Positions 3,365 through 62,985 of a DNA stretch of 64,000 nucleotides are shown here, one piece after another (the stretch's first letter is position 1; every line of letters starts with the position of its first letter). This DNA comes from an uncultured Candidatus Saccharibacteria bacterium. GTDB lineage: Bacteria; Patescibacteriota; Andersenbacteria; UBA10190. The translations under genes were made by a program, and so were the position numbers. The DNA lies in contig CAYJKV010000004.1 in the NCBI GenBank assembly GCA_964371255.1, positions 39,613 to 103,612 on the forward strand, given 5' to 3'. The notes below the pieces were generated by a model, which was not told where the DNA came from, searched no databases, and worked only from the letters and a program-made list of their open reading frames with translations.

Positions 3365-4413
3365 CTAGGGGTTAGATTGAAGAACTTTTAACGGATAAAG
3401 TAGGTGCGTCGACAGATCAAGTCGGCCGACACCTATCAGGGTGGAGAACTGGTCATGGTAAATAGCATAAAGGTGTTGTTTGCTTGGTAGGGGTGGGGGG
3501 CCAGGCAAAGAGAGATCGGGCTGGAGAGGGCTAGTTAATTGTGTAAGGGTTTTACCTGTAATCCCCTGCTCCCCTATCGTCCGGCCTTGAATGAATTGTG
3601 CGACGTTGACATCTGATAAGTTTATTTTTGGCAGGTGAGCGACTAGGGTTGTAGCTGGCAGGAGACTGTCTTTGATGGTGGTTAAATTCAATTGATTTAA
3701 TTTGACTGAATCAGCAATTTTATGCGGACCAATGCGGGTACGGCGTAATTGCTGGACGTAAGCGCCGGTCTTGAGAGCGATTCCCAGATCGCGGGCGAGG
3801 GAACGGATATAGGTACCGGTGGAGCAGGTAATAGTAAGGGAAAGGCTTGGGTAGTTGAAGGCAGTTAGTTTGATGTCGTGAATGGTAACCAGACGAGGAG
3901 CAAGTGAAGCTTTTATCCCCCGCCGGGCGATGTTATAAGCTCTCTCCCCGGCAATTCTTACGGCGGAGTAGGCTGGTGGTGTCTGCTGGATAGAACCGAT
4001 AAATTGGTTTAAGGTTTTTTGGATTTGAGAGACAGAAGGTCTAGCCTCCTCAACACCGGGTGTTTTATTATTAACACCCGGTGTTTTCCCGGCTAGCGAA
4101 GAGGTGATTTGGCCGGTAAGGTCGTCGGTATCGGATGAGGCGCCGAGAATGAAGGTGGCGTGGTACTCTTTGTCCCAAGCATGAGAATACTCAATCAGGC
4201 GGGTGGCGGAGCCGATGGCAACTAGCAGTACACCAGTAGCGAAAGGGTCGAGGGTGCCAGTGTGGCCTACTTTCAACTGGAGCCGCCGTGAGGTGAAGGC
4301 CGTCTTATTAAATAATGGCGGATGACTAGCAACAAGTAAGCGGCGGATTTGCGCTACAACATCGTGAGATGTTAATTTCGCTGGTTTGTCGATGTTGAGA
4401 AGACCGGATAGGG
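3365..4413 (-). CDS. truB: tRNA pseudouridine(55) synthase TruB, carrying an in-frame low-complexity insertion
   Basis: LLNIDKPAKLTSHDVV...GHTGTLDPFATGVLLVAIGSATRL...YHATFILGASSDTDDLTGQI matches the TruB catalytic core (GHxGTLDP). The likely start is a GTG near 4413; the ATG at 4513 would translate the 'tgaccaat' repeat and is unlikely to be genuine coding sequence. The insertion is AGKTPGVNNKTPGVEEARPS. Confidence 0.8.
4041..4097. repeat. near-palindromic element of about 57 bp inserted in-frame in truB, homologous to 21742..21797 in uvrB
   Basis: tagcctcctcaacaccgggtgttttattattaacacccggtgttttcccggctagc aligns at roughly 80% identity with the uvrB copy. It contains the palindromes aacaccgggtgtt and aacacccggtgtt. 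Confidence 0.75.
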
Positions 4414-4484
4414 TTTTCACAGGAGTATAGTATTGATAAATAATTATAACTTGATCATTAGTGGTGGTCCTTACGATTTTATAA

Positions 4485-4538
4485 ATGACCAATGACCAAT
4501 TTCCAATGACCAATCAAATCCTAATACCAAATGACCAA
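4485..4538. repeat. short tandem oligo repeat (atgaccaat / ccaaatgaccaa)
   Basis: atgaccaatgaccaatttccaatgaccaatcaaatcctaataccaaatgaccaa lies upstream of truB. It is related in style to the ccaaatgccaaa family. Confidence 0.6.
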
Positions 4539-6783: not shown

Positions 6784-8624
6784 AGAGAATAGCTGCCCTG
6801 CTTCGTGATTAATTCCCAATCTGATTGAATTGATAGGTTGGGATACAAAGAAAGCTCAACGGGTCCGACTACAACGTAATTGGGTTGGATTTGCGGCAGA
6901 GTCAATGATTGACCAGTGTAGAAAGGGCGAATACTAGTTTCTCTTTCAATGTGGTTACCGCCATGAGTCCAGACATGTCCTGGAAAACCCAAGTAGGCAG
7001 AGCGCCCCGATAGGGCAACTGGTGAATTGTGGTATGGAGCAATGAGGATGACGTCGTTTTTATTGGTGCGGTCGCGAATAGATTCGGCCATAGCGATTGA
7101 AGCAGCGTCCCACTCAGTCCAAGCAGGTAGCCCAGGGAGGGTAAGACGGAAGATATCAATAGAACCAGACAAGAGATGAAAAATCAGGGCAGCGGCTATG
7201 ACCGCGCGCCAGTAATATTTTGCCTGTTGCCATAATGCGTGACACGAGGCGGCTACTAAAGGCAGGGTAAAAAGAATCCAGTAAACGAAGATTTTAGTAT
7301 TATCCCACTCCCAGGCAGCGAAGCGCCAAATATTGGCGGCGAGGAAAAGAAGCAGGCCAGCAGCAGCTAGAAGCTTGGTTTCTTTGGGAACCCGCAGAAA
7401 GAAACCGAGCAGGGTGGTGGGGATAAGGAGGCCGGAATTTTTTAGCCAAAAGATAATAATGTTTTGGTTATGTGCCATCCAACCTAATTGGAGGTGCGGT
7501 GAAGCCGCAGCGGAGGCGGGACTAGTAGAGAAATATAGTAGGCTGGGCAAGCCAGTTAAAGCAGTGGTTAAAAAATAGGTTAGCCAGTGTCGACTTGGTT
7601 GACGCAAGACAAGGAAGATAATAACCGGAATCAAGGCGATAACGGTATGGGCGTGGAATAGAGGGAGAAAACCGGACAGTAGGCCAGCAAGGATCATTGT
7701 TTGGTGAGTTAAGGCAGAACGAGGCTGTCTTAATATAAGAAGTATAATGAAAGCTAAAGACATGCCGAACATAAAAGAGCGCTGGGGAAGCAATAAGGAG
7801 ATGATAGGGTTGATAATATAAAAACCAAGAGGGTCGTCTGAGTGGCCGGTGTAATTGATGGGTAAGTTAGCCAACCACTGTAGAATTGACTCATGAGGTA
7901 TGTTGAAGTCACCAACGATCCTGATCCAACCAAAAGTGCTGCCTCCTAACGCGAAAAGAAGGAGGGCAATTAGGGCTGTCCTGGAGTGACTAGTTAAGGC
8001 AAAGGCCAAGTGATAGAAGAGAAAAAGCGTCAGGGGGATAAGAAGAAAAGCCGGCCACACAACAGCCTGGTTGTAGTTAGCGCCAGCGACCAGGAGAATG
8101 GCGGAAAAGAAATTTGAGAAGAAAGGGTAAGTTAGTTTATTGCCAGCCAGAATTGGATTGTCGGGGGGGATGGTTGAGTTATAGGCCAGGTTAGTAATAT
8201 TGGCCATGTGGAAACCGAGATCACCATAGGCGTTAATGATGCTGGTGGACAGTCCCCCAGCGGTGCTGGAATTATAATAAAGCAATTTAGGGGCGATTAA
8301 GGCGGAGATTATTAATAGCACAACCAGGACGATGACTGCTGGTTTGTTATTGTCAAGGCACTTATAGGTCTGCCAATTTTTAATTTTAACTTGCGTGATG
8401 GTCAGATAAACAATTTCTGCGAGCAGGACAGCAACTATCAGATGTCTAGAAAGCAGAAAGAAAGCTGACGATAAATACGTGAGGACAGTGGTAAGAGTGA
8501 GTCCGATAATTGTACCGACGGCTAGAACCAGGGTTCTTTCCCGCCAGTTGGATAGCGTTAAAGTCAGGTTAATGCCTGTTAACGCGGAGACCACAAAGAT
8601 AGCAAGAGGTAAAAGGAGGCTCAT
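6768..8624 (-). CDS. polytopic membrane protein with an extracytoplasmic C-terminal domain; putative GT-C fold glycosyltransferase
   Basis: 618 aa. It has at least 12 predicted TM helices followed by a roughly 150 aa soluble C-terminus, and sits in the glycan locus next to gmd/rmd. Confidence 0.5.
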   Translation of the reverse strand: MSLLLPLAIFVVSALTGINLTLTLSNWRERTLVLAVGTIIGLTLTTVLTYLSSAFFLLSRHLIVAVLLAEIVYLTITQVKIKNWQTYKCLDNNKPAVIVLVVLLIISALIAPKLLYYNSSTAGGLSTSIINAYGDLGFHMANITNLAYNSTIPPDNPILAGNKLTYPFFSNFFSAILLVAGANYNQAVVWPAFLLIPLTLFLFYHLAFALTSHSRTALIALLLFALGGSTFGWIRIVGDFNIPHESILQWLANLPINYTGHSDDPLGFYIINPIISLLLPQRSFMFGMSLAFIILLILRQPRSALTHQTMILAGLLSGFLPLFHAHTVIALIPVIIFLVLRQPSRHWLTYFLTTALTGLPSLLYFSTSPASAAASPHLQLGWMAHNQNIIIFWLKNSGLLIPTTLLGFFLRVPKETKLLAAAGLLLFLAANIWRFAAWEWDNTKIFVYWILFTLPLVAASCHALWQQAKYYWRAVIAAALIFHLLSGSIDIFRLTLPGLPAWTEWDAASIAMAESIRDRTNKNDVILIAPYHNSPVALSGRSAYLGFPGHVWTHGGNHIERETSIRPFYTGQSLTLPQIQPNYVVVGPVELSLYPNLSIQSDWELITKQGSYSLYRLP

Positions 8625-8736: not shown

Positions 8737-10080
8737 ATGATAAAGGCTATTGACCGCAAAAGTTTGTTAGTGGTAGGGCTATTGATAGTAGCTATGTGGC
8801 TACGTATGTATCGAGTTGAGGTGCTAAATAGTGTGTCTAGCGATGAGAGGTTGTGGTTAATGGCAGGCGTGTCTCTCTTAAAGGAAGGAGTGCCGACAGC
8901 GTGGACAATCGAATGGCCTCAGCATAGATGGGACAAATTCTGGGAAGTAGACCATGGTGTGGTGACACCTTGGCTCGATCATCCCCCGTTATTTGCTTTG
9001 TTTGCTGGGGGATGGTCTATTTTGATGGGAGTAGACGATATTGATAAGACTAACCAAGCCGTACTACGTCTGCCGATGGTAGTGATATCAATGTTAACTA
9101 TCTATATTACATGGCTGGTGGCGAAAGATATTTTTGATGAGCAGGCGGCGCTGTTTGTGTTGGCTGTGTATACCTTTTTTCCGACCGATTTAATAGCCTC
9201 GCGCTTTATATTAGCAGAGCACTTTGTTCCGCTGTTATTAATGTTGGGTGGGTGGGGGTGGTTACGGTGGCTGAATGAGGACGATAACGGGAAAAGAAAA
9301 CGCTGGTTGGCGGTAATGCTATTGGTGTGTTTTGTGGGGCCGCTGGTTAAACTGATCGGTCTGATTGTGCCAATGACGCTGGGATTATTAGCGCTAATGC
9401 ATCGTCAGTATAAGATCACAAGCGGGTTAATAGGAGCGTGTGTTTTATCGTTGGGGACGTATCTCTTATATGCGTGGTCTTATAGTTGGGATGTTTTTGT
9501 CGGGGCGCAGACAGCTCATATGGCCAGACCACAAAACTTTAATCATTTCTGGTCGTTTTTTACTAAATTGAGTGCTGGTAATGTTTATGTTTTTGACCCG
9601 ACAATGATAATAGGATGGGCAGGCTTGTTTATGATTTTGGCAACAACGACAGATAAGCGCGTACGCAATCTCTTTTTTGCAGCGTTGTTGTCCATTTCCT
9701 TTTTTTTCCTGTACGTGGCCTCAGTGGAAAATTATGACTGGTATAAATATCCCATATATCCTTTGATAGCCATTGGAGCAGGATGGCTTTTTTATCGCAT
9801 ATATAAAGGCGACTATTGGTACCTATTTTTCTTCCTGCCTCTGTTAGTAGAAATTATGCAAAACACTGCATTGATCATAGATCAAACACAGCGTAGGACA
9901 TTAATGGCACTGCTGTACATGTTGTCTATCTTTTCGTTTTTGGTGCACGAAACTTTGTTCAAGAGAGTTTTTGTTGGTCTGATGCTATTATTGTTTTTAT
10001 TAGAAACTGTTTGGTATTTACGGATGTTGGGATTTGATTGCTCATTCAAGGATTGTTTTGCCCAAATGTTGAGAATATGA
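8737..10080 (+). CDS. PMT/ArnT-like (GT39/GT83-type) GT-C membrane glycosyltransferase
   Basis: 447 aa multipass protein. The first extracytoplasmic loop carries an acidic DE motif (SSDERLWLMAG), as in PMT/ArnT enzymes. It is translationally coupled to the downstream GT2 polyprenol-phosphate sugar synthase. Confidence 0.6.
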   Translation: MIKAIDRKSLLVVGLLIVAMWLRMYRVEVLNSVSSDERLWLMAGVSLLKEGVPTAWTIEWPQHRWDKFWEVDHGVVTPWLDHPPLFALFAGGWSILMGVDDIDKTNQAVLRLPMVVISMLTIYITWLVAKDIFDEQAALFVLAVYTFFPTDLIASRFILAEHFVPLLLMLGGWGWLRWLNEDDNGKRKRWLAVMLLVCFVGPLVKLIGLIVPMTLGLLALMHRQYKITSGLIGACVLSLGTYLLYAWSYSWDVFVGAQTAHMARPQNFNHFWSFFTKLSAGNVYVFDPTMIIGWAGLFMILATTTDKRVRNLFFAALLSISFFFLYVASVENYDWYKYPIYPLIAIGAGWLFYRIYKGDYWYLFFFLPLLVEIMQNTALIIDQTQRRTLMALLYMLSIFSFLVHETLFKRVFVGLMLLLFLLETVWYLRMLGFDCSFKDCFAQMLRI

Positions 10081-10832
10081 AAATAATCAATGGTTTGTCT
10101 GTGGTCTTGCCTGTATATAATGAGGCGACTGTCATTACAGAGACGGTGAGTAAAGTGTATGAGCACTTGCGTGTTATAGCCGATACATTCGAAATAATAT
10201 TGGTTAATGACGGATCGGACGATGGTACAGCCATGAAGTTGAAAGAACTGCAGCAGAAACTAACAAACTTGAGAGTGCTGGAGCATGAGCAGAACCGGGG
10301 ATATGGTGAAGCACTAAGGACTGGTTTTGATGCGGCGCAGCAGGAATGGATTTTTCAGATGGACTCGGATGGACAGTTTGATATTACGGAAATAGATCGA
10401 TTTATCGAAGAGATAGATAATTTTGATGTGATAGTAGGCTATCGGAGCAAGCGCGCTGATGTTTGGCCGCGGGCTGTGTTGACTTGGGGATATATGACTT
10501 TAGTAAGGAAGCTGTTTGGGTTGAAGGTGAGGGACGTGGGGTGCGCTTTCAAGCTTTTTAAACGAGATAATTGGGAACGAGTTCAACCGATTGTGGCTGC
10601 TGATCACAAGATCTTCTTGGTGGAATGGATAGGGAGATTGCAGGATTTGAAAGTGAGAATAAAGGAATTGCCGGTGAGGCATTTTAAGAGAGTAGGCGGT
10701 CGGCCAACCGGGGCGAGGCTTGACGTGGTGTGGGCAACAATAAAGGAATTGACAAGTTTAAAGCTAGGGAATATGCGTCTCTTGAAAAGGGGCAGAAGTA
10801 GAGATAGCAATATGGATACAGGTGAGGCTTGA
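10077..10832 (+). CDS. GT2 polyprenol-phosphate mannose/glucose synthase (Dpm1/Ppm1-like)
   Basis: LSVVLPVYNEATVI...ILVNDGSDDGT...EHEQNRGYGEALRTGF...QMDSDGQ is the classic GT2 DxD/Dpm1 signature. The ATG at 10077 overlaps the upstream gene's stop. Confidence 0.8.
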   Translation: MKIINGLSVVLPVYNEATVITETVSKVYEHLRVIADTFEIILVNDGSDDGTAMKLKELQQKLTNLRVLEHEQNRGYGEALRTGFDAAQQEWIFQMDSDGQFDITEIDRFIEEIDNFDVIVGYRSKRADVWPRAVLTWGYMTLVRKLFGLKVRDVGCAFKLFKRDNWERVQPIVAADHKIFLVEWIGRLQDLKVRIKELPVRHFKRVGGRPTGARLDVVWATIKELTSLKLGNMRLLKRGRSRDSNMDTGEA

Positions 10833-10882
10833 TTGGTGACGGCAAAGACGGATAAATTTAGTACAATAGATAAGAGCAGAAT

Positions 10883-12241
10883 ATGGTTGGATTAAAAAAT
10901 GTTTCGTTGCTGGATGTGGTCATCATGTCTTTGGCGTTAGGTTGTTTTTATTGGGGGACCTTTTATTATGCTTGGAACAGGACGGTGGCCATGCTTATTG
11001 TCGGGGTAGGTTTGCTGCTAATGTATGAGTTTTTAAGAAGATGGTCAGCCAAGGAGCAGTCGTTGATAAGTTATACTTGGGTGTCGCTAGTGGTTATTGC
11101 GACACTTGGATTGATAGTGAGGTGGCTACTGATAGATATAGTTAGTTATGACATGATCACATTTTTTATCCCCTGGTACGACTATATTGTGGCAAAGGGT
11201 GGCTGGTCGGCACTTGGTTCTAAGGTAGGAGGATATAGCCCCTTTTATTCTTATTTTTTAGCTTTAGCTACTTATTTGCCGGTAAGTAAAGTAGTGGCCA
11301 TCAAAACCTTGCCGATACTATTTGATTTTGTTTTGGCGATATTTATTTATCGGATCGTGAAGCTGAAGTATGGGTCTGCGCCATTGATACCGATAATGGC
11401 TTTTGCGGCAGTAGTTTTTTTGCCGACCTTAGTGTTCAATAGTGGTGATTATGGGCAATTTGATTCGGTTTATATAGCTTTAATCTTTGGATCATTGTAT
11501 TACGCGTTATTAATTGTTGACAAAAAACACGGTTTGCAAAAGGTGTCTTGGGATAAACTTTTAGCGATAAGTTTTTTGGGACTAGCGGTTTCCGTAAAGT
11601 TGCACGCAGTGTTATTTTTAATACCTTTAATGGTTCTTTACGTTAGCCGGTATATCGAAAGGAGATTTTTTGTGCTGGTACCGCTAATTTATTTATTAAT
11701 TATTGCTCCCAGCATGGCTTTGGGCCTGCCGCTAGCTGACGCCATTAATTATCGGACGGTAGAGGTGAATTATTTTAGAGAATTAGCTTCTGGCGCTCCG
11801 ACGATTTATCAGCTACTGCCTTATTATCCGACAAATCCTTTTCAGGTGATAGGAATTTTTTCCGCTGCGATATTGGTTGTTATGATGGCACTATTAATGT
11901 CTAAGCATGAGTTCATAACCAAAGATAGTCTGATTAGAGTAACCATCGTAGCGCTTTTAGTGGTGCCTTTTATATTGCCAGCTATGAGAGAGAGGTATTT
12001 CTTACCAGCAGAAATTGCAGCAATTGTTTATGCTTTTTATTTTCCAAAGAGGTGGTGGGTGCCAGTTGTCTTGAGTACAGTGATGCTGCTGATAAGTAAC
12101 CGTCTAATCTCTTTGCCTGATGAAGTGTTTTTCAAGTGGTATCATTTGTCGTTGGTGGTTGGTTTTTTGGTGGTTGTTGTGTTGAAAGATTTTTTTATAA
12201 ACGAGGTTATCGAAGAAAAACAATTGATATTAAGACGGTGA
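10883..12241 (+). CDS. polytopic membrane protein; putative GT-C mannosyltransferase (DUF2029/GT87-like)
   Basis: 452 aa with about 11 TM helices. The conserved loop DMITFFIPWYDYIVAKGGW...GYSPFYSY resembles GT87/DUF2029 membrane glycosyltransferases. Confidence 0.45.
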   Translation: MVGLKNVSLLDVVIMSLALGCFYWGTFYYAWNRTVAMLIVGVGLLLMYEFLRRWSAKEQSLISYTWVSLVVIATLGLIVRWLLIDIVSYDMITFFIPWYDYIVAKGGWSALGSKVGGYSPFYSYFLALATYLPVSKVVAIKTLPILFDFVLAIFIYRIVKLKYGSAPLIPIMAFAAVVFLPTLVFNSGDYGQFDSVYIALIFGSLYYALLIVDKKHGLQKVSWDKLLAISFLGLAVSVKLHAVLFLIPLMVLYVSRYIERRFFVLVPLIYLLIIAPSMALGLPLADAINYRTVEVNYFRELASGAPTIYQLLPYYPTNPFQVIGIFSAAILVVMMALLMSKHEFITKDSLIRVTIVALLVVPFILPAMRERYFLPAEIAAIVYAFYFPKRWWVPVVLSTVMLLISNRLISLPDEVFFKWYHLSLVVGFLVVVVLKDFFINEVIEEKQLILRR

Positions 12242-14280
12242 GCAGTGAGGTGTACCGATTGGTGCCCTTTTGTTCCGGCTGGGCGGTGTCTTAATCTCTT
12301 GTTTAGTGTTGTTTGGTGTATTAGATAAATTAATAGCAAGGATAGCCAAGTGGCTAGAAATAACGTTACTCCCAATTGGAACAAGGGGTCTTCGTACCTA
12401 ACGAGTATATGGGTAGTGTCGGCAGGTACATTGATCATGATTGGTCCATAGGCAGGAACAACTCGGCCAATCTTCCTGTCGTCAAAGTAGACGACGTAAC
12501 GGGGCAGGGGCGCGATATTAACAATTAACTGATGGGGGGTGTGGTCGGTGGGGTAAATGTTAACTTCATTGACACGAAATTCGTGAGGAACAGTCTTTTT
12601 TGGCTCGGTTGGACTATAGACATACGGTAGGGCATTGGTATTCTCGTAGAGGAGTATTGCCTCGTCTTGATAGAGTGGTTTTAGTTGGGCGTGCTGGTTG
12701 AAATAATTCTGGGCATTAATATTGTTGCGAGTAATAAGATAACGAACGCTCCAGGAGGATAAATAGTCTAGCAGGTCTTTGTCTGGAAATCCTAGAAAGA
12801 CCGCTTTTGCATCCAAGTATAAGGTTAGTTCGTAGTTAATTTTGGCAATCAAGGTGTCATAACCGGCGAAATCATTTAGTCCATAGAGTGAGGCAAAGTT
12901 ATATGTCGTGAAGGAGTAGTCTTCGTAGTCCAATTTATCTACAAAAGAAAAAGTGCGTCCACGCTCAGGCCGAATGTCTTTTTGGACGATTGTTAAAGGT
13001 GAGCTGAGTTCCTTGATGCTCCAGGCCGTGTCTTTGTTATTCCATACAACCAATATGTTTATTGCAAGGGAGAGAAACACTATTGAATAAATTGCTTTTT
13101 TCCCCAGTGCCTTACTTGTTTCAGCTACAGCAGAAGCAATGCCAATGATGGCTAAGGTTAAAAAGAAGATGAAGAAAGGAACGGTTTTATGCGCTCTAGC
13201 AAAATGGCTAATGATGGGTAATTCATAAAGATAACCATACAGTGACGTGCTGAGTAGGTAGGCAATGAGAGCGATCGTGCCATATAATGGCGTTCTGTGG
13301 GCTTTGGTTCGATGTCTGATTTTACGAACAAAAAGCAGAAGCAATAGAGCAAGATTGAATATCCCAACATAATATATGGAAGAGTTGGCTTTCCAAAGTG
13401 TTTGAGGGTGGTATTTAAATAGTTGTGCGTCTGTAAATGTTTTCAGTCTTGTAGGAAAAGACGAAAAGTCTGTTTTGGAGAGTGGTGTTGATCTGAAGTA
13501 AGAATTTATTTGAGCTTCATACATTGGTAATAGCAGTGGCGTGGACGCTAGCAAAAAAATCATTATGGAGAGCAAATATAGAGTCAATAAACTAACCGCA
13601 GGCTTAATTTCCCCCCGGTCTATTTTCTTGAGCATGATTGTGATAACGATCAAAAGTTCAAAAAATAATACCCAGAATGTATGCTCAACGTAACTGCCAA
13701 AGAAGAACCAGAGTTTTGGCAAGGTAAGCAGGACGGCAGATTTAATTTGCGGTTTAGTAGTAAATATGTTCAATAGCAGGAAATTGAGCGGGAGATATAA
13801 TATAAGATTGTTATCGGGAGGCCAAACTGCCCCAAGGGTTACAAGGTAGGGATATGTGCTCCAGACAAGAGAGCCTAGTAGGCACAGGGCTGGCGGTGTT
13901 TTGAGTTGTTTAAGAAACAAGAACATGACGACTGCTCCGGCGAGTCGGTAGAGGATCGCCATGATTTCTATAACGTGAAAAGTGTCGCTAAAAAACAACT
14001 TTGATAGTCCGAACGCGATGTATGGTAGGGGTGATAACACATTAGAGTGGGTGGACGGCAGATGTGTCTGGCCGAGACTCTGATGAAAATTAATTAAGGG
14101 TATGGTTTGGTAGTCAATGATTGAGCGCCAGTTATGTGTGTAATAAGACAAGTTGTAAGTAATACCGTCATAATTTGTAAAGAAAAGAGGGTGATTAGTT
14201 TCTAGGAAAAGCAGCCATATGCCTGTTAGCAAGATAGTGATAACTAGAAATTTGGTAATGATTAGTTTTTGTTGGGCCAT
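12142..14280 (-). CDS. large YfhO-like polytopic membrane protein with a roughly 300 aa extracytoplasmic C-terminal domain (putative glycosyltransferase)
   Basis: 712 aa with many TM helices in the N-terminal 400 aa and a soluble C-terminal domain ending in one last TM. Its 3-prime end overlaps the convergent gene by 100 bp. Confidence 0.5.
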   Translation of the reverse strand: MAQQKLIITKFLVITILLTGIWLLFLETNHPLFFTNYDGITYNLSYYTHNWRSIIDYQTIPLINFHQSLGQTHLPSTHSNVLSPLPYIAFGLSKLFFSDTFHVIEIMAILYRLAGAVVMFLFLKQLKTPPALCLLGSLVWSTYPYLVTLGAVWPPDNNLILYLPLNFLLLNIFTTKPQIKSAVLLTLPKLWFFFGSYVEHTFWVLFFELLIVITIMLKKIDRGEIKPAVSLLTLYLLSIMIFLLASTPLLLPMYEAQINSYFRSTPLSKTDFSSFPTRLKTFTDAQLFKYHPQTLWKANSSIYYVGIFNLALLLLLFVRKIRHRTKAHRTPLYGTIALIAYLLSTSLYGYLYELPIISHFARAHKTVPFFIFFLTLAIIGIASAVAETSKALGKKAIYSIVFLSLAINILVVWNNKDTAWSIKELSSPLTIVQKDIRPERGRTFSFVDKLDYEDYSFTTYNFASLYGLNDFAGYDTLIAKINYELTLYLDAKAVFLGFPDKDLLDYLSSWSVRYLITRNNINAQNYFNQHAQLKPLYQDEAILLYENTNALPYVYSPTEPKKTVPHEFRVNEVNIYPTDHTPHQLIVNIAPLPRYVVYFDDRKIGRVVPAYGPIMINVPADTTHILVRYEDPLFQLGVTLFLATWLSLLLIYLIHQTTLNKRLRHRPAGTKGHQSVHLTAHRLNINCFSSITSFIKKSFNTTTTKKPTTNDK

Positions 14281-21107: not shown

Positions 21108-23206
21108 GGTTGTTTTAGTTTGATGATAGCGTCTCTTAAAGTGGCGGCTCGTTCGAATTCTAGATTGCGGGCGGCCAGTTCCATCTTGCTGGTCAACTCC
21201 TTAATGATGCGGAGGCGTTCATCGGGCGGTATTTCGTCCGGATCTAGATCATCGATAAGGGCTGGTGTGCGAGCGGTGATGGTGCTGGTCTTAATAGCTT
21301 TTTGGATGGAGTGAGGGGTGATGTGATGGCGCTTGTTATAAGTTTCTTGGATGGCGCGGCGGCGGTTGGTTTCATCAATAGCCTGTTGCATGGAGCCGGT
21401 GATTCGATCGGCGTACATGATGACTTGTCCACGGAGATGCCGGGCAGCGCGGCCCATAGTTTGGACTAGAGTGGTACTGGAGCGTAAGAAACCTTCTTTA
21501 TCGGCATCCATGATGGCTACCAGGGATACTTCTGGCAGGTCCAAACCTTCACGCAGCAGATTAATGCCTACTAATACGTCATATTTACCAAGGCGTAGGT
21601 CGCGCAGTATGACTAGTCGTTCCATCGTGTCGACATCGGAGTGCAAGTAGGCACACTTGATACCCATTTCAATTAAATAGGTGGAGAGCTCCTCCGCCAT
21701 TCGTTTAGTGAGAGTGGTGACAAGGACGCGGCTGGTGAGAGTAGCCTCCTCAGCGCTGGGTGTTTTTTTGCCAACACCTAATGTTTTCCCGGCCGGCTTG
21801 ACGATCAAGCCGGGTGCGTCAGACGAAGCTGACACATCTGGTGTGTCTGCATTCTGAGGTGGCTTAGTACGTTTTTTGATTTCATCGATAATGTCGTCAA
21901 CTTGGTTAGCCAGTGGGCGGATAGAAATTATCGGATCCAGAAGACCGGTGGGGCGGACTAATTGCTCGACTATTTGCTTGCTAGTATTGAGTTCGTACTG
22001 GCTGGGAGTGGCCGAGACAAAAATAGTTGGACTGAGACGGTCTTCAAACTCATTGAATTTGAGGGGACGATTATCGCGGGCGGAGGGAAGGCGAAAACCG
22101 AATTCGATCAAGCTATCTTTGCGGGCTTTGTCGCCCCCATACATGGCGCCAATTTGCGGAATTGTCATGTGAGACTCATCGGCAAAGACAAGAAAACCCT
22201 GTGGTCCATAAGCATGTATAAAATAATCAAGGAGAGTAGTGGGCGGCTGGCCAGATTGGCGGCCATCAATATGGCGAGAATAATTTTCGATGCCGGAAAC
22301 GACGCCGACTTGCTGGATCATTTCCAGGTCGTAGGTGGTTCGTTCGGCAATGCGCTGGGCTTCAATCAGTTTCTGGCGTTTGGTGAAATGATCGACTTGT
22401 TCGGTCATTTCTGATTTGATAGCGGACAGAGCATTAGTTAGCTGGGTAGGGTTGGAAATGAAAAAGGTGGCAGGAAAGATGGTGGCCGAGTCGACTGCAG
22501 AGATGACATCGCCGGTTAAGTCGTGCAGATGAAGAAGTTTTTCAATAGTCGGACCGTAAGATTCAATGCGCAGCAACCGCTCTTCGCCGGAGGGGTGAAT
22601 GTCGATAGTGTCCCCGCGGACACGGAAAGTACCGTGCGGCAGATCAACATCATTGCGGGTGTATTGGAGCTTAGTCAGCTGCTGTAGAATTTCACGGCGT
22701 GAAAACGGCCCATGTTTTTTTAGCTGCAGGCGCTGGTTAAAATAATTAGCTGGCGAGCCGAGTCCATAGATGCAAGAAACGGAAGCGACCACGATAGTGT
22801 CGGTCCGGGTAAGAATTGCCTCCATGGCAGAGTGGCGCAGACGATCAATCTCTTTATTGATGCTGGCGTCTTTGGCGATATAGGTGTCGGTACGGGCCAG
22901 GTATGCTTCCGGCTGGTAATAATCGTAGTAAGAAACAAAGTACTCGACGGCATTGTCTGGAAAGAATTCCCTGAACTCTTCTGCCAGCTGGGCTGCTAAA
23001 GTTTTGTTGTGACTGATAACTAAGGCGGGTTTTTGGGTTTTGGCAATAACAGAGGCCATGGTGTATGTTTTGCCGCTGCCGGTGACGCCTAATAAAGTTT
23101 GTCGCTGGTAACCGTTTTTTAGTCCCGACACCAACTTCTTGATAGCTGGCGGCTGGTCGCCGGATGGTTTGAAAGGCGCTCGTAAATTGAATTTATGAGG
23201 AGTCAC
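21104..23206 (-). CDS. uvrB: excinuclease ABC subunit B, carrying a roughly 45 aa in-frame low-complexity insertion
   Basis: GVTGSGKTYTMASVIAKTQKPALVISHNKTLAAQL...EYFVSYYDYYQPEAY and a C-terminal UVR domain are present. The insertion is KPPQNADTPDVSASSDAPGLIVKPAGKTLGVGKKTPSAEEATLTS. Confidence 0.95.
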   Translation of the reverse strand: MTPHKFNLRAPFKPSGDQPPAIKKLVSGLKNGYQRQTLLGVTGSGKTYTMASVIAKTQKPALVISHNKTLAAQLAEEFREFFPDNAVEYFVSYYDYYQPEAYLARTDTYIAKDASINKEIDRLRHSAMEAILTRTDTIVVASVSCIYGLGSPANYFNQRLQLKKHGPFSRREILQQLTKLQYTRNDVDLPHGTFRVRGDTIDIHPSGEERLLRIESYGPTIEKLLHLHDLTGDVISAVDSATIFPATFFISNPTQLTNALSAIKSEMTEQVDHFTKRQKLIEAQRIAERTTYDLEMIQQVGVVSGIENYSRHIDGRQSGQPPTTLLDYFIHAYGPQGFLVFADESHMTIPQIGAMYGGDKARKDSLIEFGFRLPSARDNRPLKFNEFEDRLSPTIFVSATPSQYELNTSKQIVEQLVRPTGLLDPIISIRPLANQVDDIIDEIKKRTKPPQNADTPDVSASSDAPGLIVKPAGKTLGVGKKTPSAEEATLTSRVLVTTLTKRMAEELSTYLIEMGIKCAYLHSDVDTMERLVILRDLRLGKYDVLVGINLLREGLDLPEVSLVAIMDADKEGFLRSSTTLVQTMGRAARHLRGQVIMYADRITGSMQQAIDETNRRRAIQETYNKRHHITPHSIQKAIKTSTITARTPALIDDLDPDEIPPDERLRIIKELTSKMELAARNLEFERAATLRDAIIKLKQP
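21742..21797. repeat. second copy of the roughly 57 bp near-palindromic in-frame element (see 4041..4097)
   Basis: tagcctcctcagcgctgggtgtttttttgccaacacctaatgttttcccggccggc. It is read in the same frame and orientation as the truB copy. Confidence 0.75.
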
Positions 23207-23313: not shown

Positions 23314-23877
23314 ATGATTGCATTAATTAAGGGAGAAGTAGCCGAAAAAGACGAGAAGTCGTTGGTTGTCATGGCGGGAGGGGTAGGTTATAGAATAGCG
23401 GTGCTGCCAACCCTGCGGAGCCAAGTTAAGACGGGTGAAGCGGTGGAGTTGAGGATTCATCATCATATTAATGACGATAATGAGTCGCTGTATGGATTTG
23501 AGACAAAGGCGGACTTAAATACATTCGAACTGTTGCTCACCGTGCCGTCGGTTGGACCACGGACAGCGATGGCTATCTTAGAAACTGCTCCACCAGTCGT
23601 GTTGGAACAGGCGGTAGCGGAGGAAAATATCGCAGTATTAACAAAAGTCTCGGGAGTTGGCCGAAAAACTGCCGAGCGGATATTGGTGGAATTGAAAGAG
23701 AAGATCAAGGCACCATTAGTAGCAGGAGTAGCGGGCGGGGTGCAGCAGGGAGCAATGGAAGCACTCGTCAGTATTGGGTTCAAGACGGCGCAGGCCAGAG
23801 AAGCAGTGCAAAAATTGCCGGCAGGCGTAAAAACGATTGAGGAAGCGGTACGGGCAGCGTTGAAACAACAAAGCTGA
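23314..23877 (+). CDS. ruvA: Holliday junction DNA helicase RuvA
   Basis: MIALIKGEV...GGVGYRIAV...LYGF...FELLLTVPSVGPRTAMAIL...VSGVGRKTAERI matches RuvA domains I-III. Confidence 0.9.
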   Translation: MIALIKGEVAEKDEKSLVVMAGGVGYRIAVLPTLRSQVKTGEAVELRIHHHINDDNESLYGFETKADLNTFELLLTVPSVGPRTAMAILETAPPVVLEQAVAEENIAVLTKVSGVGRKTAERILVELKEKIKAPLVAGVAGGVQQGAMEALVSIGFKTAQAREAVQKLPAGVKTIEEAVRAALKQQS

Positions 23878-23940
23878 AAGTTCAAAATAAACGAGGCCAC
23901 GAATGGCAACAAGAAGCGTGATGTAAAAAATTGAAGAGCA

Positions 23941-24091
23941 TAAGATGGTTAATAATTTTCAATTTTCAAAGCTCAATTCTCAAATAATTTTTAATGATTC
24001 AATCTATCAAACATTAGTAATTTTATCTTTGTCGTATATATTTGAAAATTATAGACTTGAATGCTTTATTGAAGATTGAAAATTGGTAATT
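23941..24091. repeat. AT-rich dispersed element of about 150 bp with terminal inverted 'aattttcaa / ttgaaaatt' motifs (copy A of 3)
   Basis: Roughly 80% identical to 25121..25285 over about 100 bp; 39088..39185 is a shorter third copy. It ends at the FemAB-like gene start. Confidence 0.7.
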
Positions 24092-25120
24092 GAAAATTAT
24101 ATGAATGTTCGTCTAGCGACAAACCAGGATAAGGAGAGATGGAATGAAGTGGTGATAAATTCGCCGCAGGGTTCTTTTATGCAAGCTTGGGAGTGGGGTG
24201 AGATGCAGCTCTCTTTTGGGCTGCCAGTGTGGCGACTGATAGTGGAAGATGGAGGGTCGTGGGCGGGGGTGGCGCTGGTGATTGAACGTAGTGTGCTGTT
24301 CGGGCGGTGTTGGTTGTATGTGCCGCAGGGACCGCTTTATGAGAGCGAGCCGAGAGTCTGGCGGCTGGTTAATGATAAATTGCGCGAGTTGGGGGCGAGT
24401 CAGAAAGCGATATTTGTTCGTTGTGATCCAATAATCACTCAGGCTAACGGGAACGATGTTTTGTTATTACAGAGCGGCTGGCTGAAGTCCGAGCGAGAGG
24501 TGCAGCCGCGTCATACACTGATGGTGGATCTGACCCAGAGCGAGGACCAATTATTAGAACAGATGCGCCAAAAAACCAGATATAACATCAGGTTGGCACA
24601 GCGGAAAGGCGTAACGGTGAGGTTTTCTCAGGCAAAAGGTGATGTAGAAAATTTTTTGGAATTAACGCGAGAGGTGGAAAGCCGCGGACTGTTCCGTTAC
24701 CATCCCGCGCATTATTACCGGACAATGCTGGAGGTCTTGGGGCCGCATGGTTTGTTGGAGATTGGGGTAGCGGAAATGGAAGGAACGGTTTTGGCGGTAC
24801 ATTTATTATTGAAGTTTGGGAAGAGGGTGACATACGGGCACGGGGCGAGTCTGGCCGGCAAGAGAGAATTGATGGGGCCGCATTTGTTGCAGTGGGAATC
24901 AATTAAGCGGGCGAAAGAACAAGGATACCTGACATATGATTTTTTTGGGGTGGCGGCTGACCAGTCCGACAGCGATCATCCGTGGGCAGGCATTACGCGT
25001 TTTAAGTTAGGTTTTGGCGGTAAGCGAGCAGATTATATTGGTGCGTATGATTTAGTGTTGGATCAGACGTTATATGCCATCTACAATATGGCGCGCCGGA
25101 TGAGGGGAGTTCTGAGATAA
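24092..25120 (+). CDS. FemAB family peptidyl/aminoacyl transferase (peptidoglycan interpeptide bridge formation family, GNAT fold)
   Basis: 345 aa with FemAB-like architecture (MQAWEWGEMQ...YHPAHYYRTMLEV...GHGASLAGKRELMGPHLLQWESIKRAKEQGYLTYDFFGV). Confidence 0.75.
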   Translation, partial: ENYMNVRLATNQDKERWNEVVINSPQGSFMQAWEWGEMQLSFGLPVWRLIVEDGGSWAGVALVIERSVLFGRCWLYVPQGPLYESEPRVWRLVNDKLRELGASQKAIFVRCDPIITQANGNDVLLLQSGWLKSEREVQPRHTLMVDLTQSEDQLLEQMRQKTRYNIRLAQRKGVTVRFSQAKGDVENFLELTREVESRGLFRYHPAHYYRTMLEVLGPHGLLEIGVAEMEGTVLAVHLLLKFGKRVTYGHGASLAGKRELMGPHLLQWESIKRAKEQGYLTYDFFGVAADQSDSDHPWAGITRFKLGFGGKRADYIGAYDLVLDQTLYAIYNMARRMRGVLR

Positions 25121-25285
25121 ATTTTCATTTTTTCCCTAGAGGATCCCTTCAGGACAAAGCTCAATTTTTTATAAATGCCAATGATGCAATTATCGAACAT
25201 TGGTAATTTAAGTTTTGTCGTATATGTTTGAAATTTTTAGTTTGAATGTTTGTCTGCAGGTTGAAAATGGGTAATTGAAAATTAG
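25121..25285. repeat. AT-rich dispersed element, copy B
   Basis: See 23941..24091. It ends at the start of the Mur ligase ORF. Confidence 0.7.
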
Positions 25286-25310
25286 GGGAGAGACATGTAT
25301 CTTTGGGCGT

Positions 25311-26603
25311 ATGAAAGTTAAGCGGTTATATCAGCAACTAAAGAATAGCTATCATTTTTTCCAGGCACATGGGTGGCGATGGTGGTATGGCCGGCCGGAC
25401 AGGGGGATGAAGATATACGGGGTGACCGGTACAAACGGGAAAACCACGACTAGTATCTTGTTGGGGACGATCTTGCGAGAGGCTTATGGACGAGATAAGG
25501 TGGGGCTAATCACGACGATCACTTTTTGGCTAGGAGGAGAAGAGCAAGTGAATGAGACAAAAATGACGACGATGAGAAGCCGCGATGTGTTTAAGCTACT
25601 GCAGCAGATGAAAGACCGGGGAGTGGAGAGGGTAGTGTTAGAAGTAACAAGCCATGCCTTAGATCAGCACCGTTTGGCGGGAATTATGTTGGATGGAGCG
25701 ATTATTCTAAATATCGCGAGGGAGCACTTGGATTATCACGGGACGATGGATGAGTATACGCGAGCTAAGGTTAAAATATCTGACTATTTAGTGGTGGGGG
25801 CACCGTTGGTAGTTAATGCCAAAATCCAAATGCCAAACAAATGCCAAACAAATGCCAAAATCCAAATTATTAAATTGGCAACAGAGCAAGCCAAGAATGT
25901 TGTTACTTCTCTGCCGGGGGAAGTGAATAAAGAAAATGTATTGGCGGTAATATTGTTGGCGCGAGCAGTGGGCGTGGATGAAGCAATAATAAAGCAGGGA
26001 GTGGCAAAGGTTGACCACGTGCAGGGGAGAATGGAGTGGGTAGAGATAAATGACCAAAGCTCAATAACCAAAGCTCAAATGACCAGATGGCGATTGCCTA
26101 GAGTGTTGATTGATTATGCGGTGACACCGGATGCGCTGGAGCAACTATACCAAGAGGTCAGAACAATGACGCGGGGTAAAATATTTGCCGTGCTGGGTGC
26201 GTGCGGACAACGTGACCGTGGGAAGAGACCAATGATGGCTCGGGTGGTGGCGCAATATGCCGACGAGCTTATTTTGACTCGAGAGGATCCGTGGGAAGAA
26301 GAAGAAGAGCAAATCTTCCGGGATTTAGAAAAGGGCTTGGAACCAGGGGTTGGGGTTAATGCCGCTAATGATGGCACGGCTCCGGATAGGCGAGAGCTCA
26401 GTCACGCAGTGTGGCAACGTATAGTCGATAGGCGAAAGGCGATCAAGTTCTGTATTGATAAGGCAGGACTGGACGACGTAGTAGTGGTGACAGGCAAGGG
26501 GGCGGAAACAGGCATGGCGATTGGCAAAAAGATCCTGCCGTGGAGTGATAAACAGGTAATTCAAGAATTGCTGGCGGAAAAAGCGAGAAAAGGCGCGTTA
26601 TGA
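25311..26603 (+). CDS. Mur ligase family protein lacking the N-terminal domain (MurE/MurT-like)
   Basis: P-loop GVTGTNGKTTTS about 45 aa from the start, then VLEVTSHALDQHRL and NIAREHLDYHGTMDEYTRAK (MurE-like middle domain), followed by a C-terminal domain. There is no Mur N-terminal domain. The gene contains an in-frame oligo repeat. Confidence 0.75.
   Translation: MKVKRLYQQLKNSYHFFQAHGWRWWYGRPDRGMKIYGVTGTNGKTTTSILLGTILREAYGRDKVGLITTITFWLGGEEQVNETKMTTMRSRDVFKLLQQMKDRGVERVVLEVTSHALDQHRLAGIMLDGAIILNIAREHLDYHGTMDEYTRAKVKISDYLVVGAPLVVNAKIQMPNKCQTNAKIQIIKLATEQAKNVVTSLPGEVNKENVLAVILLARAVGVDEAIIKQGVAKVDHVQGRMEWVEINDQSSITKAQMTRWRLPRVLIDYAVTPDALEQLYQEVRTMTRGKIFAVLGACGQRDRGKRPMMARVVAQYADELILTREDPWEEEEEQIFRDLEKGLEPGVGVNAANDGTAPDRRELSHAVWQRIVDRRKAIKFCIDKAGLDDVVVVTGKGAETGMAIGKKILPWSDKQVIQELLAEKARKGAL
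25815..25867. repeat. ccaaatgccaaa oligo repeat in-frame within the Mur ligase CDS (encodes NAKIQMPNKCQTNAKIQI)
   Basis: aatgccaaaatccaaatgccaaacaaatgccaaacaaatgccaaaatccaaatt. The same motif is intergenic at 39914..39945. Confidence 0.75.
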
Positions 26604-27019: not shown

Positions 27020-27303
27020 AATCTATTTTGTCAAAGACGCTTGACGTATGGCCAAAGATTGCTCTATACTTAATTTTACGTTTTTCAGAGGACTGATCTG
27101 TGTGTAGATCAATTTTATATCTAGACCACAGCAGGTGCGCAGAGCACATAAAATTCGCTCTGTTGGGTCTAAAATATCATGCATAACCTGTGGGTTTAGA
27201 AACTTAGACTTTTCCACAGGCACTTGGCTAGTGTTATGGTTTTATAGTATAGAAAAGTATTTTTGTTGGAGTTTATATATAGATAGATAACAAAAAACTG
27301 ATT

Positions 27304-38769: not shown

Positions 38770-39099
38770 TTAGCGGGGCAAGTCCTGGTTTTGTAAAAGC
38801 GTTTCCAGGCTATCGTCAGGAGCCATTTTATTGCGGCGAACGAGGCCACAGACTTCACATTCTTGAATCAAATCTAGTTTGGTCGGGTCTGTTCCTTCAT
38901 ACGAAATGGTCGGCATCAGGCCATGACATGAAGCGGAGCGATCGCCGGGGACGCGGCCGTCAACATGTTTACTGGTCAGGCAATGGGGACAGTGGTTGCG
39001 AAATGTTTGGGGAGCAGGCGGGACGTTGGCATCGCACTTGGCGCAGATAAAGGGATCATTACGGGGGATGAAGTTGCGACGAGAATTTTCAATTTTCAT
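38770..39099 (-). CDS. RNHCP domain-containing protein
   Basis: FRNHCPHCLTSKHVD...ECEVCG is the RNHCP zinc-ribbon-like signature. Its first codons (MKIENS) are encoded by the AT-rich dispersed element. Confidence 0.7.
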   Translation of the reverse strand: MKIENSRRNFIPRNDPFICAKCDANVPPAPQTFRNHCPHCLTSKHVDGRVPGDRSASCHGLMPTISYEGTDPTKLDLIQECEVCGLVRRNKMAPDDSLETLLQNQDLPR

Positions 39100-39185
39100 T
39101 TTTCAATTTTCAAATAATTTCAAGCAGTCAATTTTCAACCTGACACTGTTTGCGAATTGAAAATTGGGTTTTGAAAATTGGTTAT
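39088..39185. repeat. AT-rich dispersed element, short copy C
   Basis: gaattttcaattttcatttttcaattttcaaataattt...ttgcgaattgaaaattgggttttgaaaattgg shares both termini with copies A and B. Confidence 0.6.
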
Positions 39186-39191
39186 TGTGGT

Positions 39192-39410
39192 CTATTGTCC
39201 TCGATAACCAAGTAGTCCCATTTCTCTGGCGCGTTTGATCTCGCGGGAGAGGTGTCGCTGGTGCTTGGCGCAGCTGCCGGTCTTTTTGCGAGGCAATATT
39301 TTCTTTTGTCCGCTAATAAAATGCTGGAGCACTTCGGTGTCACGAAAGGTGACCTGTTTAATACGTTTGGCGCAAAGTAAGCAGGAGGTGTTGATTGGTT
39401 TTGAACGCAT
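39192..39410 (-). CDS. rpsR: 30S ribosomal protein S18
   Basis: 72 aa. ...LQHFISGQKKILPRKKTGSCAKHQRHLSREIKRAREMGLL matches S18 (KILPRRxTGxxAKxQRxLAxAIKRAR). Confidence 0.9.
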   Translation of the reverse strand: MRSKPINTSCLLCAKRIKQVTFRDTEVLQHFISGQKKILPRKKTGSCAKHQRHLSREIKRAREMGLLGYRGQ

Positions 39411-39893: not shown

Positions 39894-39913
39894 AATAAAA
39901 AGCTTAGGCTTTT

Positions 39914-39945
39914 AAAATCCAAATGCCAAAATCCAAATGCCAAAC
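39914..39945. repeat. ccaaatgccaaa oligo repeat (aaaatccaaatgccaaaatccaaatgccaaac) in the ssb-rpsF intergenic region
   Basis: Direct read. It is followed by a second short tandem repeat, gaatttgaaatttgggctttgaaatttgacatttgg. Confidence 0.7.
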
Positions 39946-40003
39946 TTTTTTAGATTGGCTTGGGCTTGAATTTGAAATTTGGGCTTTGAAATTTGACATT
40001 TGG

Positions 40004-57877: not shown

Positions 57878-57890
57878 CGAAGAGAAAGTT

Positions 57891-59189: not shown

Positions 59190-59200
59190 CAAAGAAGGTT

Positions 59201-62669: not shown

Positions 62670-62985
62670 ATATTTAATCGAAGATGTTTTGATGAGGGAC
62701 AAGGTTTATCCGAATACCCCAAGGAAGGTAGTGGGTAAAGTAGGCGGTCAGGCGGGAAGGGTTGTTGGTTATGTTATGGGCGTAATAGTTATAGACTCTT
62801 TTTTTCTAATTGGATTGCCGATTATGTTGAGGGGAGCGGAGACAGTCGATAATGATGCTATGTTGTTAAATAAAATTGATCGACAGTTAGATATTGAGAG
62901 GGATATTGGATACATAGTAAATTTTCAAGGGAGATTACAAGTGCCAAATAATAACGGGCAGCATTTAGCTTGTTACCACCCTTGA
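62659..62985 (+). CDS. hypothetical small membrane protein
   Basis: ORF with one predicted TM (VVGYVMGVIVIDSFFLIGLPIML). No family recognised. Confidence 0.3.
   Translation: MINKYLIEDVLMRDKVYPNTPRKVVGKVGGQAGRVVGYVMGVIVIDSFFLIGLPIMLRGAETVDNDAMLLNKIDRQLDIERDIGYIVNFQGRLQVPNNNGQHLACYHP

Follow-up and report, generated by a model that had tools for sequence, protein, structure and literature searches.

Three AT-rich spacers in a 64,000-nt stretch of contig CAYJKV010000004.1 (the whole stretch is called the window below) contain members of a lineage-specific class of intergenic palindromes, about 100-165 bp long, with arms composed of tandem 7-bp repeats. The host, an uncultured groundwater bacterium, is an Andersenbacteria-like member of the candidate phyla radiation (CPR). 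Its nearest named relative is Candidatus Andersenbacteria RIFCSPHIGHO2_02_FULL_46_16, with a FemAB identity of 80%. Element A occupies the spacer between ruvA and a FemAB-family gene, element B the one between FemAB and a Mur ligase gene, and element C the one between S18 and an RNHCP-domain gene. Comparison with relatives makes it quite probable that these heptamer palindromes, which were inserted into the spacers of operons, form a family that is constrained and exchangeable. For the complete statement, in which this description is combined with a post-transcriptional mechanism, the chances are put a little below even; the mechanism taken by itself is tentative and rather doubtful. The evidence for the elements being functional is good, that for their mode of action indirect. 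The features concerned are:

23878..24100 (+), whole ruvA-FemAB spacer, a less AT-rich left part of 74 nt followed by element A

23952..24100 (+), element A, a TTGAAAATT-type heptamer palindrome with a 13-bp terminal inverted repeat and period-7 arrays

24101..25120 (+), FemAB-family peptidoglycan bridge transferase gene (Pfam FemAB, E = 5e-45; start ATG 24101)

25121..25285 (+), element B, paralogous to A but with 23 nt inserted (about 25134-25156), a decayed left arm and a right array at 25261-25284

25311..26603 (+), Mur ligase gene (Pfam Mur_ligase_M and Mur_ligase_C; start ATG 25311, MKVKRLYQQ)

38770..39099 (-), RNHCP-domain gene (Pfam RNHCP, E = 3e-25, domain from residue 15)

39084..39192 (-), element C, a TTGAAAATT-type palindrome, which fills the S18-RNHCP spacer and overlaps the RNHCP gene by 15 nt

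39894..40003 (-), element D, a palindrome with heptamers of a different type (CAAATGC/CAAAATC ... TTTGAAA/TTTGGGC), which fills the S6-ssb spacer

The arms follow one layout. The 5' side carries an A-rich array (CAAnnnn), the 3' side a complementary T/G-rich array (TTGnnnn), which in A, B and C reads TTGAAAATT. This 9-mer occurs 12 times in the window (1.76 +/- 1.17 expected), a number reached in 0 of 100 shuffles. Eleven of the 12 sites are located inside A, B or C; the remaining one is a lone site at 62920. The excess over shuffles and the concentration in the three elements show that the family is not a product of chance. Sites on the reverse strand always come first, to the left of those on the forward strand, in the order (AATTTTCAA)n...(TTGAAAATT)n. 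Exact 9-mer sites follow this minus-then-plus order in elements A and C of the window, in the copy of A from L020 and in an element of L060. Inverted arrays are present in A, B, C and D. Tandem Repeats Finder detected period-7 arrays of 2.3-4.9 copies at 23954, 24068, 39084, 39915 and 39969; this 7-bp tandem structure of the arms had been missed in the earlier reading. Over 13 elements, the lag-7 autocorrelation amounts to 0.45, compared with 0.30 +/- 0.011 in shuffled sequences and 0.29 in ordinary AT-rich spacers of the window, which places the 7-nt periodicity about 14 standard deviations over the shuffles. Heptamer arrays are enriched five- to eight-fold in this clade. The units of the class include TTGAAAA, TTTGGCA/TTTGGAT, TTGGTCA, CGTTTTA and others.

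The inverted termini described in the earlier note are confirmed in A by termini of 13 bp that form a perfect inverted repeat (ATAATTTTCAATT, 23952-23964; AATTGAAAATTAT, 24088-24100). A left array of AATTTTC/CAAnnnn units (23954-23987) and a right array of TTGAAAA units (24068-24098) enclose an inner pair of the same motif at about 23984 and 24042. The five exact TTGAAAATT sites of A are arranged -,-,+,+,+. The reported similarity of A and B, about 80% over roughly 100 bp, was reproduced by blastn with 80.6% over 134 nt and 5 gaps (23967-24099 versus 25155-25284). The homology spans the whole elements once the 23-nt insertion in B is allowed for. Element C has five exact sites as well, arranged -,-,-,+,+, and a period-7 array with 91% matches; it is identical in strain L061. 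Its description as a shorter copy of A and B holds for the arms (86% over 37 nt, 88% over 24 nt), but the centre is unrelated.

The elements are located in strings of genes on one strand. Near A and B, the order is uvrB on the minus strand, followed on the plus strand by ruvA, FemAB, Mur ligase, a tsaB-like gene, rpoB, rpoC and ftsK. The minus strand next to recA carries S6, ssb, S18 and the RNHCP gene. Two outgroup loci, L022 (FemAB 63% identical) and L067 (FemAB 53%), have these gene strings as tightly packed operons on one strand. The ruvA-FemAB and FemAB-Mur spacers measure 8 and 44 bp in L022, the latter with a GGAG Shine-Dalgarno (SD) motif, and 13 and 9 bp in L067. Orthologous sites are empty in L022 and L067 and filled in the ingroup. 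The compact outgroup spacers identify the elements as later insertions, which entered the once-tiny spacers of the ruvA-FemAB-Mur-tsaB and S6-ssb-S18-RNHCP strings. At the ruvA-FemAB site, six ingroup genomes were compared (window, L020, L001, L019, L021 and L066). All six carry a heptamer palindrome, and at least five unrelated sequence types are represented:

TTGAAAA type, ruvA-FemAB spacer of the window and L020

CGTTTTA type, ruvA-FemAB spacer of L001

CCCTAAA/TTTAGGG type, ruvA-FemAB spacer of L019

TTTGACA/TTTGGCA type, ruvA-FemAB spacer of L021

TTTGGGA/TTGGTCA type, ruvA-FemAB spacer of L066

The FemAB-Mur site is filled by a common CGTTTTA-type palindrome in L019, L020 and L001, and B was found in the window only. 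B is an old paralogue of A and replaces this other element at the site. L019 represents a strain variant, with a FemAB protein 98% identical to that of the window and other element types at both sites. Both alleles occur in one assembly, ERZ13692937, as the window-type contig L015 and as L019. Between the window and L019, both spacers are wholly replaced within a mosaic recombination tract, which includes adjoining coding sequence. The tract takes in the first four or five Mur codons (MKVK in the window, MVRR in L019), and identity is regained from about 25325.

Four species carry the TTGAAAATT type, at four different loci and with unrelated centres. The family thus exceeds a local tandem duplication, the outcome that the earlier note had set against its own proposal: the type recurs at the orthologous ruvA-FemAB site (L020), in the S6-ssb spacer (L060) and upstream of the RNHCP gene (L062). 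L060 carries a TTGAAAATT-type palindrome in the S6-ssb spacer, which holds D in the window. A 27-nt TTTGGCA-type array of D, TTTGGCATTTGGATTTTGGCATTTGGA, recurs identically downstream of FemAB in L021. The TTGGTCA array, which in the window lies upstream of truB, also precedes the RNHCP gene of another species, as inferred from the N-terminal extension VIGNWSLVI of P0131. Element types thus recur across loci and species and replace one another at one site between strains. Copies of the same type were sought within the same genome in 71 kb, comprising the window and a 7.3-kb contig extension (L063). None was found in the extension, which leaves three copies in 71 kb; of the further copies anticipated in the earlier note, those at other loci of other species were found, but none in these 71 kb of the same genome.

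Many metagenome contigs break at the 55-mers 23756-23810 and 25337-25391, or are joined there with a 100-base unaligned gap (L012-L019). A window-type unit of 1636 bp and an alternative unit of 1489 bp coexist in the same assemblies, which identifies the FemAB region as a strain-variable bubble. An apparent presence/absence difference of 155 bp between L012 and L013 was rejected as a scaffolding artefact, composed of the 100-base gap (probably N filler) and a duplicated 55-mer. In L021, about 4 kb (9384-13512) are inserted between FemAB and Mur. The insert comprises a GT2 glycosyltransferase gene, duplicated 5' pieces of Mur and a fragment that weakly matches reverse transcriptase. Behind the heptamer palindrome of this genome, the start region of Mur persists as a dead copy, with AGG in place of ATG.

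Heptamer arrays are not confined to complete palindromes. Element D shows periods of 7, 14 and 21 (Tandem Repeats Finder), with the palindrome proper at 39914-40003. Three single arrays were found in the window:

4484..4514 (-), single-armed (TTGGTCA)n array, period 7, 4.4 copies, about 70 nt upstream of the probable truB start

25815..25867 (+, sense), CAA-type heptamer array within the Mur coding sequence (Tandem Repeats Finder), translated NAKIQMPNKCQTNAKIQ

26049..26078 (+), second heptamer array within the Mur coding sequence, AATAACCAAAGCTC, 2 copies, period 14, 93% matches

The truB start was placed near 4415 from the translation and a Pfam TruB match. In the first Mur array, positions 25815-25838 are identical in 24 of 24 nt to the left arm of D (39922-39945). 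Mur and the S6-ssb spacer are oppositely transcribed, which would result in a perfect 24-nt complementarity between both mRNAs. The L001 Mur orthologue has CAA heptamers at the place matching 25815-25867, where the protein alignment is variable, and carries CAAGTATCAATTTCCAATTTTCAA at the position matching 26049-26078.

Element sequence is retained far beyond the level of synonymous sites. Between the window and L020, the 215-nt spacer holding A is 87.9% identical, versus 50.9% (saturated) at FemAB third codon positions. Identities of CGTTTTA-type elements amount to 91.7, 78.9 and 74.6%, versus 53.5, 62.9 and 47.9% at third codon positions. At both gene borders, identity drops sharply to about 70%, the coding level, within 30 nt on each side. 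Recent recombination as the source of the 88% identity of A was rejected on account of this fall on both sides. The conservation above saturated third positions and the sharp borders indicate purifying selection. The window and L020 copies of A are separated by a one-heptamer indel. In the CGTTTTA family, the start-proximal arm is the best conserved part, with 6 variable columns out of 46; the left arm has 14 of 52, and the loop, as the least conserved part, 13 of 27. Left-arm changes in this family comprise 13 one-sided pair-keeping and 2 compensatory changes versus 6 broken pairs.

T/G-rich arrays lie in fixed orientation before start codons that lack an SD motif. The distance from the array end to the ATG is 0-8 nt for A, C, the two elements each of L001, L019 and L020, the L021 element upstream of FemAB (L021F), the element of L066 and the S18-RNHCP element of L060; it amounts to 13-26 nt for B, D and the S6-ssb element of L060. 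The genome is SD-poor overall: SD-like motifs (GGAG, GAGG or AGGA, 4-18 nt before the start) precede only 7 of 36 genes called via L012, L061 and L063. Many gene starts in the window are preceded by ...TT/ATT. Judging from these starts, translation in the host appears to be initiated mostly without an SD motif.

In the earlier note, the three elements were credited with giving start codons and first codons to three genes. This is true for C and the RNHCP gene, but not for A and FemAB or for B and Mur. ATG 39099 is located within the heptamer array of C (GAAAAATGAAAATTGAAAATTC), and C indeed supplies this codon together with codons 2-6 (KIENS). Most RNHCP orthologues start with MRKNFIPRND, the window protein with M-KIENS-RRNFIPRND. 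L062, another species (68% identity), has retained the same ATG and KIENS across an in-frame insertion of 30 nt. Element A does end exactly before ATG 24101, as described, but donates nothing, since orthologues without the element keep an identical ATG and N-terminus. The N-terminus MNVRLATNQDK (M-N/H-V-R-L-A-T) is common to FemAB orthologues with A, with other elements or with none; the comparison of orthologous loci lacking the element, which had been suggested as a check, found it unchanged. The Mur start assigned to TTG AAA ATT (25275) is an artefact of the open reading frame (ORF) listing. Orthologues begin with MV(R)RLYQQLKN, fitting ATG 25311 (MKVKRLYQQLKN), which sits 26 nt past B. Heptamer elements thus create false ORF starts and N-terminal extensions, such as the Mur TTG start and the extensions of P0124 and P0131. 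An upstream ORF of 8 codons, MYLWAYES (25297-25323, +), lies behind a GGGGAG motif, overlaps the Mur ATG 25311 and ends 10 nt after it. It may reflect translational coupling in the B-carrying allele.

The elements contain no conserved promoter according to a consensus scan and a by-eye comparison of orthologues, in which no conserved -35/-10 pair was found inside them. Only weak sigma-70 matches (9/12) were obtained; they are made by the heptamers themselves, and the candidate hexamers are not conserved (TAGACT in the window versus TGGATT in L020 at key positions). Canonical TTGACA-17-TAnnnT promoters occur elsewhere in the window. The mobile promoter cassette envisaged in the earlier note is not supported: the internal -35/-10 pair is missing and, in the CGTTTTA family, the loop is the least conserved part. 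A leaderless-mRNA promoter in the right arm was rejected, as the spacing fits the CGTTTTA type loosely and A not at all. A small protein encoded in A was likewise dismissed, because in L020 a 7-nt indel interrupts the corresponding 44-codon ORF, which begins at ATG 23946 of the window. Rfam 15 gave 0 hits at gathering thresholds over the window and only noise for 23800-25400 (E = 1.3 and 2.7). No tRNA was found in the elements. A scan of JGI metagenomes with the conserved central 20-mer returned 37 hits, all without flanking similarity and at chance level. Among viral sequences, the double-arm pattern retrieved a single lone site, TTGAAAATTGATAATTGAAAATTA at 10273-10296 of L065 (IMG/VR UViG_3300021387_001585), which forms an AT-rich islet between the genes of this GC-rich phage contig and reads TTGAAA-17-AATAAT. 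The site probably matches by chance or represents an ordinary promoter, unlinked to the CPR family.

Whole-element hairpins are predicted with z-scores from -0.4 to -4.9 in 10 of 11 elements folded (A -2.7, C -3.4, D -4.9); B is the exception (+0.1). The proposed mechanism starts from co-transcription of the elements with the flanking same-strand genes in a polycistronic mRNA, which is suggested by the missing conserved internal promoter. The elements would then act after transcription. The T/G-rich array before the SD-less start codon may serve as an initiation region, or as an array for a single-strand-binding factor. Pairing of the upstream complementary array with this start-proximal array would form a long hairpin, which could mask the initiation region, bridge the upstream stop to the downstream start, or be cut by a double-strand-specific RNase. 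New sites may be reached by copying or recombination rather than through a transposase. An array that reaches or crosses a start codon can create a new ATG and N-terminal codons, as it did in the RNHCP gene.

Several observations weigh against this mechanism. Both co-transcription and RNA folding are inferred from the DNA. The L060 S6-ssb element folds better in antisense (-31.0 versus -15.4 kcal/mol). An asymmetry of G-U pairs (71 of 464 in sense versus 22 of 414) was dropped as evidence for an RNA hairpin, since it follows GC skew. Stability of the sense strand tracks the G-rich strand and not the gene strand, and hence does not speak for an RNA role. The same confound affects the A-to-G and C-to-U changes that preserve pairing, and three sequences per family are a sample too small for statistics of covariation. 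No candidate gene for a binding protein of the Hfq/Sm, ribbon-helix-helix, cold-shock or S1 type was found in the window. Abutment to the ATG is largely trivial where the ancestral spacer was 8-13 bp long, as at FemAB, because an insertion into such a spacer must end close to the next ATG. It also fails for B (26 nt), for D (about 25 nt) and for the L021 element downstream of FemAB, which abuts the stop codon and has the remnant of an SD region behind it. Ordinary spacers are equally conserved, e.g. the rpoB leader with 90.8%. These genomes seem to keep their intergenic DNA under tight selection generally, with the palindromes as no exception. Conservation of this kind points to a function, not to which function.

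Three other explanations compete with the post-transcriptional mechanism. The earlier note had likened the elements to miniature inverted-repeat transposable elements (MITEs); A, B and C would then be active non-autonomous transposons with multi-site terminal inverted repeats, bound by a transposase encoded elsewhere, and their outward expression signals would be incidental. Small size, AT-richness and inverted termini of repeated subterminal sites are in line with this view, as are the single arm family at four loci in four species with unrelated centres, the existence of filled and empty sites, the different elements at one site in co-occurring strains, and the short repeat-derived insertions which the lineage also carries within genes. 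A target-site duplication, however, is missing from the sequences next to A (GGTTA / ATGAA), to B (GAGA / GGGG) and to C (CGAG / TTAT). Neither the window ORFs (Pfam) nor the gene lists include a transposase or recombinase, and no insertion sequence sharing the TTGAAAATT termini was found within 71 kb. There are three copies in the 71 kb, and the two full ones differ by 20%. The orthologous A, 88% conserved across synonymous saturation and with sharp gene borders, is too conserved for a neutral insertion and unlike a neutral parasite. The change between strains consists of a replacement within a mosaic recombination tract, not of insertion or excision. Active MITEs are considered unlikely.

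DNA operator arrays are a further explanation, and quite an unlikely one. A protein reading heptads would bind the 7-bp repeats, two inverted arrays would enclose a promoter in the loop and act on it by repression or looping, and the types would answer to paralogous regulators. The contiguous direct heptads, in inverted arrays of 2-5, resemble the architecture of the omega operator; the type-specific exact conservation (TTGAAAATT across species, the 27-nt TTTGGCA-type array at different loci) and the scoring of arrays as weak promoter-like sites (TTGAAA-17-GAAAAT) agree with it. Against it stand the loops, which have no conserved -10/-35 pair, change their hexamers between orthologues and are the least conserved part. 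The genes form same-strand strings that are tight operons in the outgroups, the same arrays also occur in coding sequence, and the window has no ribbon-helix-helix gene. Finally, slippage in steps of 7 nt and hairpin-templated repair might build AT-rich quasi-palindromes as a neutral by-product, with A and B as a local spacer duplication. In many bacteria, no long simple repeats are commoner than those of heptanucleotides, for which an origin by slippage was proposed (Mrazek, 2007, as cited in PMC4679880). The one-heptamer indel between the window and L020 copies of A, the arrays in variable protein loops and a single TTGGATT in the L022 spacer, possibly a seed or remnant, would also suit a neutral origin. 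Identities of 75-92% despite synonymous saturation strongly disfavour it; identical array types occur at non-homologous loci in different species, and B is not adjacent-tandem to A and replaces another element. A neutral origin is highly improbable.

Among known systems, TAACTGA heptamer repeats have been described from marine Beggiatoaceae, some Cyanobacteria and Bacteroidetes (MacGregor, 2015; PMC4679880). They occur in sets of 2-6 and most often end 1 nt before SD-less start codons, but are also found in ribosomal-protein operons and in ORFs. A role as post-transcriptional binding sites was proposed for them (PMC4679880). The Beggiatoa genome has 1 inverted set in 170 (PMC4679880), unlike the CPR arrays, which form inverted pairs and hence palindromes of 100-165 bp. 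Common to both are tandem 7-nt units, 2-6 per set and often split by related heptamers, a mostly intergenic position in one orientation that ends a few nt before an SD-less start codon, and the presence in ribosomal-protein operons and, in the stop-free orientation, within ORFs. The CPR elements differ in that the unit is not TAACTGA and several heptamer types occur per genome, in their comparative constraint and cassette replacement between strains and loci, and in the host. They are best filed with start-codon-proximal heptamer repeats and with intergenic palindromic repeats, as a variant of both.

Intergenic palindromic repeats of the ERIC/IRU, Correia (CREE) and RUP/BOX families are imperfect palindromes of about 100-170 bp in transcribed operon spacers, with tens to hundreds of copies. 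Elements of these families can alter neighbour expression or mRNA processing; Correia hairpins are RNase III substrates, can carry promoters and are flanked by a TA target duplication. To our knowledge, orthologous copies have not been reported as conserved above coding sequence. The CPR elements share the imperfect palindrome of about 100-170 bp between same-strand genes and the dispersed occurrence. They differ by arms of 7-bp tandem units, by only 3 copies in 71 kb and by the missing TA duplication; homology to these families was not indicated by any Rfam or other match. The omega ribbon-helix-helix repressor of pSM19035 reads WATCACW heptads; its operator arrays and parS consist of 7-10 uninterrupted units beside plasmid promoters, with at least 2 adjacent ones needed. 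Contiguous 7-bp units (at least 2) in direct and inverted arrays are likewise found in CPR, but as two arrays of about 4 heptads, 40-110 bp apart, in chromosomal operons and also in coding sequence. Cyanobacterial STRR heptanucleotides (STRR1 CCCCAGT, STRR2 TTGGTCA, STRR3 CAACAGT) form long direct arrays without a palindromic partner, and we know of no reported relation to start codons. The array at 4484-4514 has the unit of STRR2, which may be coincidence.

Rickettsia palindromic elements (RPE) are whole palindromes of 100-150 bp inserted in frame within genes. In-frame repeat-derived DNA is also present in CPR genes (the Mur arrays and a 52-nt element in truB and uvrB), but there only as single arrays or the 52-nt unit, the full palindromes being intergenic. 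This 52-nt repeat (81% identical) includes the palindrome AACACCCGGTGTT and is located in truB at 4042-4093 and in uvrB at 21742-21793, both on the minus strand, and in L001 at 7760-7800. It is translated in frame in both genes as AGKTPGV..KTP(GV/SA)EEA. The outgroup UvrB (L067) lacks a 41-residue block exactly at the site of the repeat. From its placement, the repeat looks like a short in-frame insertion element of truB and uvrB, RPE-like in kind. TIGR arrays are common in CPR bacteria. They encode guide RNAs and consist of 36-nt units (edge repeat, spacer, loop repeat, spacer) beside a Nop-domain Tas gene (PMC12045711). They were rejected as a match, because the period here is 7, 14 or 21 and no Nop-domain hit was obtained in the Pfam-scanned window ORFs or the gene lists.

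Two other regions of the window were recorded. The tsaB-like-rpoB spacer (27020-27303, 284 nt) is 90.8% identical to L020 and 90.5% to L001, with saturated synonymous sites. Its canonical promoter, TTGACG-18-TATACT, precedes about 220 nt of conserved leader without an Rfam match, and the spacer may encode an undescribed rpoB leader RNA. At 55060-61353 (L063 4813-11104), four PEP-utilizers mobile domain genes are arranged in tandem, with a PPDK_N gene after the first. These paralogues have a 92-nt block in common, with 61-84% identity.

CPR genomes are tiny and dense, and almost nothing is known about the control of gene expression in them. Our literature search found no description of such elements in CPR or Patescibacteria. 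Spacers of 8-44 bp in relatives are filled here by structured elements of 100-220 bp, which surpass the flanking genes in conservation and coincide with contig breaks and alternative contigs of the region in metagenome assemblies. Through them, the long-unexplained heptanucleotide repeats at start codons of Beggiatoaceae, Cyanobacteria and Bacteroidetes are connected with a case for which the comparison of relatives gives evidence of selection. A wider view, speculative and unlikely as it stands, is that of an undescribed layer of post-transcriptional control in Andersenbacteria-like CPR bacteria. Interchangeable intercistronic cassettes, each with an array read by a type-specific single-strand-binding factor and with a complementary masking array, would set the translation of single operon genes in an SD-poor genome. 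Recombination would pass the cassettes among loci, strains and species, sometimes with a change of start codons and N-termini, and arrays in coding sequences and in oppositely transcribed spacers would allow mRNA-mRNA pairing (e.g. 24 nt between Mur mRNA and the S6-ssb spacer RNA). If the elements are regulatory, they would offer a testable handle on operon-internal control and SD-less initiation in an uncultured phylum, and would show the way in which such modules are exchanged in natural populations.

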